Below are positions 18,001 through 21,000 of a DNA stretch of 25,667 nucleotides, piece after piece. This DNA comes from a virus (Duplodnaviria; Heunggongvirae; Uroviricota; Caudoviricetes). Position numbers: made by a program. Each line of letters begins with the position of its first letter. Within the stretch, counting starts at the first letter, position 1. Where the stretch lies: IMG/VR virus record IMGVR_UViG_646311923_000009. One strand, 5' to 3'.

Positions 18001-21000
18001 TTACTGGATGAACTGCCGGTTTTCACCTTTTTAGCCCATCGTAGCGCATCGATACTCATACGAACCCCAGACAGATATTTGTTTATCTGCAAAGTAATGT
18101 TGGTATTGCTGACGATACGCACGCTTGAAAGCAATAGCTTTTTCTATAAGTTCGTCAGTCTCACGTTCCACAACAGCTGGATCCGCAAAAAGTAGCCCTG
18201 ACTCCACCACATCGCCATATTCTTTGTTTAACCCGGCGATCATGTACGTAATGCTTTTTCCGTCAGTAATTTCACGATACAACCTGAAATCACTGATCCG
18301 GATAGCCGCCATAATTGCCGGAATCAGCGCCGTGAATTTTTCCCGCTTATCCCTGGTGTCGATAGATTTCCAGCGTTCGAATATCTTCACCCGGTTAACG
18401 CCCAGCGCCCGTTGATCAACCGCGCCATCATCAAACGTGACGCGTTGAACATCGATGTTCGGGCGTTCTTTCAGAGCCCAGAATGCTTCCGTGATTAATA
18501 TCGTCGCCTGCTCCTGTGTCATTCCTGGTCGGCATACCCAGGCATCCAGAGCCTCACAAACCTGTTCAGGGGTGATTTTCATTGTTCAACCGCCCCGCCC
18601 GCTTTGCCTTACGATATTCGTCATAAACTTTGGGGTCGTACTGAAGTTCCCCGCCGGATGCCTCTTGCAGGCGCATCGCGCGACCTTCAGGAACCAGTTC
18701 CCCCCATGCAGCAATGCTTGCCAACCTAACTCCTGCGGCATTGGCAAGCTTTGTTTTGCTGCCAAAAAACGCTATAGCATCAATTTTCAACATATCGAGC
18801 TCCTTAGATTTTCCTAAGGAAACTAGATCGTAGAGAAACCTAAGTCAAGAAAAATTAGAATTCCCTAATATGAAAAACGAAACCTTCGGTGCTCGCCTCT
18901 TACATAGGCGTAAAAAATTAAAACTGTCTCAGGCCGCATTAGGTAAGCTGGTCAAAGTGGCTCACGTAACAATTTCTCAATGGGAAAGAGATGAAACACA
19001 GCCGGCGGGGAAAAGATTATTCGCACTGAGCCAAGCGCTTCAGTGCTCACCGACTTGGCTTCTTTTTGGGGATGAAGATAAACAACCAGGCGAACCGATC
19101 CCGAATAATCAGCCAGCCATTCTGACAGAAGATCAAAAAGAGTTACTTCAACTGTTCGACGCACTGCCTGACTCAGAGCAAAAGGCCCTGTTGTCAGAGA
19201 TGCGTGCTCGAGTTGAAAATTTCAACAAACTTTTTGAAGAACTACTTAAAGCTCGCAAAAGAAGCGCAAACAAATAACCCCTTTTTTCTCCACACCCTGT
19301 AATAAAAAGCACAAACTTTCAAACACTTGTGTTTTTTACACCAAAAAACTTAGGTTTTTCTACATAAAAATCTTGACCATATGCCTTAGGTTATTCTAAA
19401 TTTCACTCATCAAGACACCGCACGGTGTTCTCAGCAAACAGTTCCGCTACTCCGGCGTTAAGGGGAAATGAGGTCAGCATGGATACTATCGATCTTGGCA
19501 GCAACGAATCTCTGGTGTACGGCGTGTTCCCAAACCAGGACGGCACGTTCACCGCGATGACGTATACCAAAAGCAAAACGTTTAAAACCGAAAATGGTGC
19601 CCGTCGCTGGCTGGAAAGAAACTCAGGTGAGTGATATGGATTTCGACACAATCATGGAAAAGGCTTACGAAGAATACTTCGAAGACCTTGCCGAAGGCGA
19701 AGAGGCTCTCAGCTTCAGTGAGTTTAAACAGGCGCTTTCCAGTTAGGCAAAATCTAACGGCTGATAAGCGAAACAGCACCGCGAGGAATCAGTATGCATA
19801 AACGAGAACCCGTCATCATCGCGCCAGACTATACCGATGATGAACTTTATGAGTGGATGCGCCAGAAAATTAATGCAGCGCAGGATCTGAAATGGGCCAA
19901 TGAAGCCAGGGCTAAGCAGGCTGAAAAATCTGTCCGCTCTGGAGCAGGATATCACCAATTTGGAAAAAGCAGCGGCATTAAGCATTGCCAGAATGATTAC
20001 ATACCCGCGTTAATAGCTAACCAACGAGGATAAGGTTGGTAATTAAGGAGTTCTCTACGGGTCAGGTGGAGTGCGTGCGCCGGACACGGGTGAGCATCCG
20101 GCACGTTCTTTAAAAATCTGGATAGTCCCAACTTATTTAAACGGTTAATTATCTTGAGTTCATCCAGAACTTATTATTGCAAGCGGGGCAAAAAGTACGA
20201 AAATGAGCATCAAAGCGCATTATTTCCATTGGTTGCAGTACAGATATTACCTTTTTTCCAAAACATTGTGGGCAAAGATGCACTGTTATCTCGGTATCGC
20301 CTATAAATTGCTTCTTGGAATACACAAGAGTTCCAGAATCAAGCTTGTTAAGTTTGTAACCTTCCGCCTGTTGCTGAAAGTCTTCTATCTCTGCAATTTT
20401 TGCTTTGAGAGATGCGGCTTCTTCCTGATAAGAGCGCACCATCTCAATGAGCGATACGCATTCAAACTGAACAGACGTAAGTTTTGAAAGCATATCGCTG
20501 ACAGCGGAATTTATCTCAGTTTGAGTTTTGCATTCAGAATACCCTTTGCCATTACCGCAGTTTCTTTGATTGCCGACATTGCTGCTGAGAACTCAACTAT
20601 CACGTTACATACTCTTCTCGTTGTTGGGGATATCCAGATTATACAAATTTCTTGTTGTTGGGGAATAACAGGAACCACCTCGCCTGACGTGGTTAAAAGC
20701 AGGCACACAACGCGAAAGCGTACGGCGAGGTAGCTGGTTCATAGATAGCCTGTCGTTAAATTTTCGTCGACCGTGCGCTTCCGGTTGTGGCAGTCCGCGA
20801 AATGGCGCGGCGGTAAGTATGGCTGGGGTTTCCTCCATTGCTCCAGAAAATGCACCGGGTTGTCAGGTTGACCATACGCTTAAGTGACAACCCCGCTACA
20901 ACGCCCTCTGTTATCAATTTTCTGGTGACATTTGGCGGTATCAGTTTTACTCCGTGACTGCTCTGCCGCCCTTTTTAAAGTGAATTTTGTGATGCGGTGA

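Follow-up and report, generated by a model that had tools for sequence, protein, structure and literature searches.

The closest described counterpart of the locus analysed here is Rip1 ("ring interacting pore 1"), which was reported by Patel et al. (2026, Nature 651:1060) as described in the review PMC13434031, and the account of Rip1 given in the conference report PMC12908700 agrees with that review. Rip1 is a single prophage-encoded protein that is non-toxic alone, and the phages that escape it carry mutations in the portal (Pseudomonas phages) or in the small terminase (E. coli phages) (PMC13434031). Cryo-EM revealed 12 Rip1 monomers around an 11-mer small-terminase ring; the N-terminal part of the protein is an amphipathic helix and the ring is contacted by the C-terminal half (PMC13434031). 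The assembly is a pore, with dye release from liposomes, holes in cells and the premature death of the infected cell (PMC13434031). Homologs of Rip1 are widespread in Proteobacteria and are mostly prophage-borne (PMC13434031). Other described systems touch on the present locus through the position they occupy. SieB/Esc of lambda and P22 is a prophage-expressed abortive-infection/exclusion function, while Tab (tail assembly blocker) of the Pseudomonas phage JBD26, a protein of 83 aa with a partner anti-Tab gene, acts by blocking tail assembly and forms no pore. HkaP of the phages HK620, HK630 and HK629 is annotated as a "putative superinfection exclusion protein" based on its position and has never been characterised under that name. 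A literature search on hkaP returned only unrelated matches; the Tai paper was set aside, as HK620 serves there only as a test phage, as was an Fc02 RNA-seq paper that concerns a B3-like phage with different genes.

The stretch of DNA that was analysed, referred to here as the window, comprises 25,667 nucleotides of a virus of the Caudoviricetes (IMG/VR record IMGVR_UViG_646311923_000009). A first-pass annotation, made from the sequence alone, had drawn attention to a reverse-oriented 114-aa ORF with a CPQC-x24-CPAC motif between ydfC and dicF, and this ORF is present at 20149..20493 on the minus strand as described, with an ATG start and with its cysteines at C74/C77 and C102/C105. The plus strand, which had been considered devoid of a plausible gene, indeed carries only a 94-aa shadow ORF (20203-20487) opposite to it. 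In the identical public genome of E. coli 2011C-4251, the ORF corresponds to the hypothetical protein WP_001399959.1. The ORF is far beyond what chance would produce, as is evident from its match to phrog_1244 (E=3.5e-38), the numbers of its homologs and the dN/dS values of the intact alleles. However, the assumption that the ORF is a whole gene did not hold. The gene extends over 20149..20603 on the minus strand and is split by a 1-nt deletion, so that its disrupted form measures 455 nt, compared to 456 nt and 151 aa in the intact form. Upstream of the ORF and in another frame lies an N-terminal stub (20511..20603, minus strand) of 30 codons with a GTG start, which reads VIVEFSAAMSAIKETAVMAKGILNAK followed by an out-of-frame LKLR and a stop at 20511-20513, and which matches residues 1-26 of the intact 151-aa allele of strain KFu019. 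The strains KFu019, GB089 and ETEC4077 carry this intact 456-bp gene at the same ydfC-dicF site, and the DNA of KFu019 is 97% identical to the window here. Alignment with these three alleles places the missing base at 20530..20531, where the minus strand has changed from AATGCCAAAAC to AATGCAAAAC. The N-terminus of the closest phage homolog also matches the window in two different frames, and the match of the ORF to phrog_1244 is limited to positions 39-147 of the 157 in the profile. The 114-aa ORF is thus the 3' three-quarters of a broken gene and is incomplete by itself. It retains the ring-binding domain with its four-Cys zinc ribbon as well as the greater part of the long helix, but, because the 1-nt deletion broke the gene, what appears to be its N-terminal helix is an internal part of the ancestral protein. 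The NCBI pipeline annotates the 114-aa remnant as a normal CDS.

A 61-nt probe across the site detected the deletion in 15 complete genomes and the same variant in the intact form in 13 others, which indicates that the deletion is real and lineage-specific. A sequencing error was ruled out as the cause of the frameshift, as the deletion is common to 15 independent complete genomes. The cassette as such was found at the ydfC-dicF site in 58 of 5426 genomes. Among the intact alleles, dN/dS ranged from 0.18 to 0.45, and the intact gene is therefore truly coding and under purifying selection. The first-pass annotation had made its proposal depend on conservation of the ORF among homologous regions, and 55 close homologs, mostly 151-170 aa long, were found across Enterobacterales in a search of 5.8 billion proteins. 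The upstream neighbour in the operon, ydfC (19794..20033, also given as 19794-20013, plus strand), is frameshifted as well, as an A-run at approximately 19924 contains one A too many, and it is annotated as a "frameshifted" pseudogene in the public genome of 2011C-4251. Strain 377323_2f has the same rip1 deletion together with an intact ydfC, and thus the lesion in the rip1-family gene predates the one in ydfC.

The homology and structure searches that had been proposed in the first-pass annotation led to Rip1 by both routes. The family profile matched chain L (Rip1) of the PDB entry 9oox with E=1.9e-17 (profile positions 6-148 on chain residues 16-157), and the window ORF alone matched 9oox with E=4.9e-6, its residues 2-109 aligning with residues 49-155 of Rip1. 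The sequence similarity to the characterised Rip1 is significant at an identity to the experimentally studied protein of only 23-26%. A query with Rip1 of HK446 retrieved orf25 of DMS3/D3112 (E~1e-17 to 1e-18), and a profile search of 1.84 billion representatives yielded 2413 sequences at E<=1e-3, 721 of them at E<=1e-10. In a comparison of 46 diverse members, HK446 Rip1 and DMS3-25 among them, the four cysteines (C74/C77/C102/C105) form the only invariant columns, and the window ORF has both of the CxxC pairs that characterise the C-terminal domain of Rip1. The motif MIAEIxAAxxAxK stands at the N-terminus of essentially all of the family representatives. The N-terminal extensions of the homologs showed no transmembrane character (maximum KD19 about 1.2). 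Scans of the ORF against Pfam, NCBIfam and PADLOC (2023) gave nothing significant; at E<=10, Pfam listed nine weak matches, the best of which (0.017) was below threshold. The JGI label "predicted nuclease with TOPRIM domain", attached to P0002 and P0008, was disregarded as it was unsupported by Pfam or by the fold search.

The predicted fold points in the same direction. The AlphaFold2 model of an intact homolog, P0004 (pLDDT 89.4), consists of helices at residues 2-16 and 20-72 that are followed by a beta-rich domain bearing two CxxC knuckles, which is the arrangement of Rip1, i.e., long N-terminal helices and then a ring-contacting beta-rich domain. When this model was compared with the PDB using Foldseek, the only two significant matches were both chains of 9oox (E=5.5e-8 and 1.3e-7, probability 1.00, TM 0.66-0.73), an entry that is titled [quoted passage not shown]. 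The model of the window ORF itself (pLDDT 91.3) shows a confident long helix and an intact sensor domain, and it also matched only 9oox (E=1.8e-6, TM 0.70); over the 9oox matches of both models, the E values ranged from 5.5e-8 to 2.5e-6.

These searches also bear on whether the protein could be a zinc-ribbon transcription factor of the DksA/TraR or Ogr/Delta kind that regulates prophage or host genes, since a coiled coil combined with a C4 zinc motif is superficially DksA-like. The DksA/TraR finger has the form CxxC-x17-CxxC after a coiled coil, whereas the spacing in the window ORF is x24, and neither DksA/TraR nor Ogr/Delta was among the nine weak Pfam matches listed at E<=10. For the zinc-finger domain of Ogr/Delta there was no PHROG match either, and the structure and sequence searches returned only Rip1. 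The first-pass annotation had separated the ORF from both of these families by its cysteine spacing, and the Pfam results agree. A regulator of this kind is, in our estimation, hardly conceivable, being effectively refuted by Pfam, Foldseek and the profile search. By sequence, fold, cysteine pattern and context, the gene belongs to the Rip1 family.

In the case of the genomic context, every homolog examined was reverse-oriented inside a prophage operon (10 contexts). In HK446, rip1 (gp37) lies in reverse orientation within the pL operon, where its neighbours are N and an anti-restriction gene (ral), and hkaP of HK620 and HK630 is likewise reverse-oriented in the pL operon, in the position of sieB. 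In Enterobacter, Edwardsiella, PhiR49_1 and vB_EcoM-611R5, the homologs are reverse-oriented too, with the early-left genes on one side and the repressor on the other. DMS3-25, which is homologous to the window protein, lies in DMS3 in the slot that tab takes in JBD26 and that is given as the location of the Pseudomonas Rip1 (PMC13434031); Tab itself is an unrelated protein. The window gene, which runs antisense within the DicA-controlled ydfABC-dicF-dicB operon, fits this family pattern, as it is a single prophage gene that is oriented against the surrounding operon and has a predicted promoter of its own. Compared with Rip1 (HK446 gp37 and the protein of a Pseudomonas aeruginosa prophage), the window family is alike in sequence, fold and the four cysteines, in the order of an N-terminal helix and then a zinc-ribbon domain, in being a single prophage-borne gene, and in its reverse orientation in an operon near the immunity region downstream of the same promoter module; the intact alleles of 151 aa are also of the same length class as the 164 aa of Rip1. 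The window gene differs from Rip1 in its low identity, in its frameshift with the loss of the N-terminal 37 residues and in its site, which is ydfC-dicF of a Qin-like cryptic prophage rather than N-ral or the space between terminase genes. HkaP belongs to the same family (tblastn 32.7% identity, E=7e-10), but it is intact, 164 aa long and of the HK446-type subfamily. The proposal of the first-pass annotation that the gene is an accessory or defence moron is thus strengthened by its homology to Rip1, an experimentally shown anti-phage defence.

Conservation is stronger in the approximately 105 nt that precede the start codon than in the proteins themselves. This segment, a sieB-type promoter/leader module at 20604..20706 on the minus strand, was recognised by its homology to the sequence that precedes sieB in lambda and P22, and it also aligns among the Qin-like, Enterobacter, Edwardsiella, HK620, HK446 and 611R5 loci. 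The aligned segment of P22 is annotated as "promoter; sieB RNA start site" in one P22 record. The module contains a consensus -10 TATAAT (20638-20643) and a weak -35, direct repeats CCCCAACAAC(A/G)AGAA at 20649-20663 and 20615-20629, the second of which overlaps the Shine-Dalgarno, and interleaved inverted repeats AACCAC/GTGGTT (20673-20694) and GCCTG/CAGGC (20682-20704). The promoter of the module went uncalled in a simple promoter/terminator scan owing to its weak -35, and no convincing terminator of the gene emerged from the same scan; when the module was compared with Rfam, no family matched and only a spurious lncRNA match at E=2 was returned. Transcription from a sieB-type promoter in the lysogen is a prediction from homology, one that accords with the earlier suggestion that the gene has its own promoter. 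Rip1-family genes take the classical sieB slot of lambdoid prophages together with the sieB promoter module. SieB and the window protein share an equivalent reverse-oriented early-left slot and the homologous module of approximately 105 nt, but they have no sequence relationship, as no SieB family appeared in Pfam at E<=10 and SieB has no zinc ribbon. That the module is common to both points to defence morons being exchanged like cassettes at a single conserved regulatory element.

The surroundings of the gene are those of a decaying Qin-like cryptic prophage. In 2011C-4251, the ORF lies between the frameshifted ydfC and dicB in a Qin-like element that extends from a truncated ydfJ to an integrase located beside rspB. 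The decay of the element is evident from the frameshifted ydfC, an inserted IS3, and nleG7 and other pseudogenes, and no morphogenesis genes were found in it. Downstream of the ydfC-dicF interval, the dicF sRNA (20920..20971, plus strand) was identified with Rfam RF00039 at 77 bits. The interval, for which about 880 bp had been claimed, measures approximately 890-906 bp here compared to 340 bp in K-12 Qin. The first-pass annotation had read this difference as an insertion, and a pairwise alignment did reveal a 588-bp cassette (20105..20692) where K-12 Qin has 27 unrelated bp. The polarity may be wrong, however, because K-12 keeps a degenerate edge of the promoter module of the cassette, which suggests a deletion in K-12 over an insertion here, i.e., that K-12 lost the cassette.

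The helix that had been taken for the true N-terminus of the protein is not the original one, as the real conserved hydrophobic helix has been cut off. The 1-nt deletion leaves the window ORF with a first residue that is equivalent to residue ~48 of Rip1. The 37 residues that are lost include the MIAEIxAAxxAxK helix motif, and hydrophobicity peaks in this stretch in the intact allele as well as in HK446 Rip1 and DMS3-25, so that the complete N-terminal amphipathic/hydrophobic helical region of Rip1 is present in the intact alleles but not in the window, where about 43 residues of the long helix are kept. As the review places pore formation in the N-terminal helical part (PMC13434031), the window allele is most likely pore-deficient, judging by the conservation of the lost segment, and the gene is most likely an inactive pseudogene or remnant.

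Even a broken gene could still defend its host, either through a reinitiated 114-aa product or through a low-level -1 slip on A-AAA-C that restores the full length. The stub stop is only 17 nt from the ATG at 20493, which would make reinitiation possible, but this ATG is an internal Met and inspection of the upstream sequence revealed no Shine-Dalgarno ahead of it. A -1 shift on GCA-AAA-C gives exactly the wild-type reading ...NAKTQTE, but for efficient slippage a run of A4 is short, and a stimulatory structure is absent. The long helix and the sensor domain that are predicted for the remnant might favour some residual activity, whereas, across the family, no part of the helical region is more conserved or more hydrophobic than the segment that was lost. 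The frameshifted allele is unchanged in 15 genomes; these, however, are near-identical over the 1411 bp compared, and the persistence of the allele may therefore reflect mere clonality, while the neighbouring ydfC is also decaying. On balance, we consider continued defence by the broken gene to be improbable.

The shared slot and promoter module also invite a comparison with P22, in which sieB encodes Esc, an N-terminally shortened in-frame product that is annotated as protecting against SieB. By analogy, the truncated 114-aa product, if made by reinitiation behind the stub, might use its intact ring-binding sensor domain in the manner of Esc, as a dominant-negative or decoy capping the rings of the phage small terminase or portal, or poisoning intact Rip1, without forming a pore. 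However, the family does not conserve the internal Met and the truncation results from a lineage-specific deletion rather than from a conserved internal start, so that this proposal is pure analogy with Esc, and we find it very unlikely.

The explanation that we favour, and regard as probable, treats the ORF as the remaining 3' part of a rip1-family moron, likely inactive, in a decaying Qin-like cryptic prophage. It combines the frameshift, homology, fold, context and promoter homology observed here with a mechanism drawn from the literature and a loss of function deduced from conservation. The intact 151-aa gene would be transcribed in the lysogen from the sieB-type promoter, opposing the DicA-repressed ydfABC-dicF-dicB operon, and by homology with Rip1 its product would be harmless alone. 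An infecting phage would then supply ring-shaped assembly proteins, either the small terminase or the portal, to the outside of which the C-terminal zinc-ribbon domain would bind. Roughly twelve copies of the protein would be templated into a second ring, a pore built of their N-terminal amphipathic helices would open in the inner membrane, and the cell would die before the phage matured. Both the sensing of rings and the formation of pores are extended here by analogy to an Enterobacterales subfamily that is 23-26% identical to Rip1, and they should be read as presumed for it. In the window, the 1-nt deletion parts the first 26 codons from the rest, and any 114-aa product would be without the conserved hydrophobic N-terminal 37 residues.

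The window gene is a diverged and, here, disrupted member of the known Rip1 family and is nothing new in kind. A family that was formerly annotated as "hypothetical protein" is now characterised via Rip1, and a class of function can be assigned to WP_001399959.1 and its intact relatives in the Qin-like prophages of STEC and other E. coli, as well as to HkaP of HK620; in the lineage studied here, the copy of the rip1-family gene is broken. Because PADLOC (2023) and Pfam miss the family, Rip1-type loci are overlooked or mis-called as intact. The most useful by-products of the analysis are the annotation of the HkaP- and Qin-type proteins as Rip1 homologs and the common sieB-type promoter module.

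A near-invariant core of about 35 nt, TGCCTG(T)CTTTTAACCACrTCAGGCkmGGTGGT (window 20673-20706, minus strand), was found to precede three unrelated reverse-oriented prophage genes, namely sieB in lambda and P22, the rip1 homologs, and a 66-aa gene of O157:H7 and of the E. coli strain KFu019 whose product is named 'ECs_2282 family putative zinc-binding protein'. Further copies lie at about 1201-1240 of L021, at about 3850-3890 of L014 and at 1501-1537 of L024, and, relative to the annotated -35 of P22 sieB, the core is placed upstream. Within it, the inverted repeats GCCTG/CAGGC and AACCAC/GTGGTT are interleaved, and their stems are invariant among the copies and hence show no covariation. 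A search of Rfam returned no match for the core. A regulator site, an RNA pseudoknot and a recombination hotspot for moron exchange are the candidate roles.

When the window was compared with K-12 Qin (L007), homology restarted at 20692/20693, which is within this core, and a degenerate version of its distal edge has been retained in K-12 (GAAAAGTCAGAC vs TAAAAGCAGGCAC). Because this edge remains, the alignment suggests that the cassette was deleted from K-12 rather than acquired by the strain carrying the window. Two direct C/A-rich repeats, CCCCAACAAC(A/G)AGAA, at 20615-20629 and 20649-20663 on the minus strand, flank the -10 element on both sides, and the one at 20615-20629 overlaps the Shine-Dalgarno sequence. 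The copies in HK446, HK620, P22 and lambda keep the repeats as CCCCTACAG.. These repeats could be an operator or, alternatively, a translational enhancer or sRNA target.

Alignments A2 and A3, which comprise the homologs of window 20149-20603, revealed that the rip1 family is mosaic. Two alternative N-terminal halves, the KFu019 type and the GB089 type (named after the two E. coli strains), are about 50 % different and are joined to an identical C-terminal half. Hypervariable segments are the C-terminal tail and the stretch that separates the two CxxC pairs. Judged from the alignments, this pattern would fit recombination together with diversification of the ring-binding surface. In the window, the deletion in rip1 left A-AAA-C at 20526-20534 (GCA-AAA-C on the minus strand), where a -1 slip of tRNA-Lys would give back the exact wild-type frame and sequence, although probably inefficiently.

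Elsewhere in the element, the gene for an 805-aa exonuclease with a long, acidic, low-complexity middle region is intact (21612-24029), in contrast to its K-12 counterpart ydfE, a pseudogene interrupted by IS2. The left part (1-14926) holds ydfJ in truncated form, a DinI-like gene, nleG7 with a frameshift, and an IS3 that includes an ALIL pseudoknot (5669-5785). It also holds STnc100 (9655-9821), hokD/sok (13674-13976) and paa (14168-14926), which encodes an adhesin. Genes for head, tail and terminase are absent, and the element is therefore a cryptic remnant, with virulence cargo also aboard.

At the ydfC-dicF site of E. coli C012_chr (L023, 1101-2141), about 2.1 kb was observed with three other small annotated genes, one of which encodes 97 aa on the minus strand. 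This site is a possible hotspot for variable cargo. In the window, an additional A within an A-run at about 19924 shifts the reading frame of ydfC (19794-20033; GCTGAAAAATC vs GCTGAAAATC in K-12). In strain 377323_2f, the same rip1 deletion occurs together with an intact ydfC; the two lesions therefore arose separately. K-12 and GB089 have ydfB between ydfA and ydfC; the window lacks this gene (19746-19794), and its ydfA-ydfC gap is only about 47 bp.
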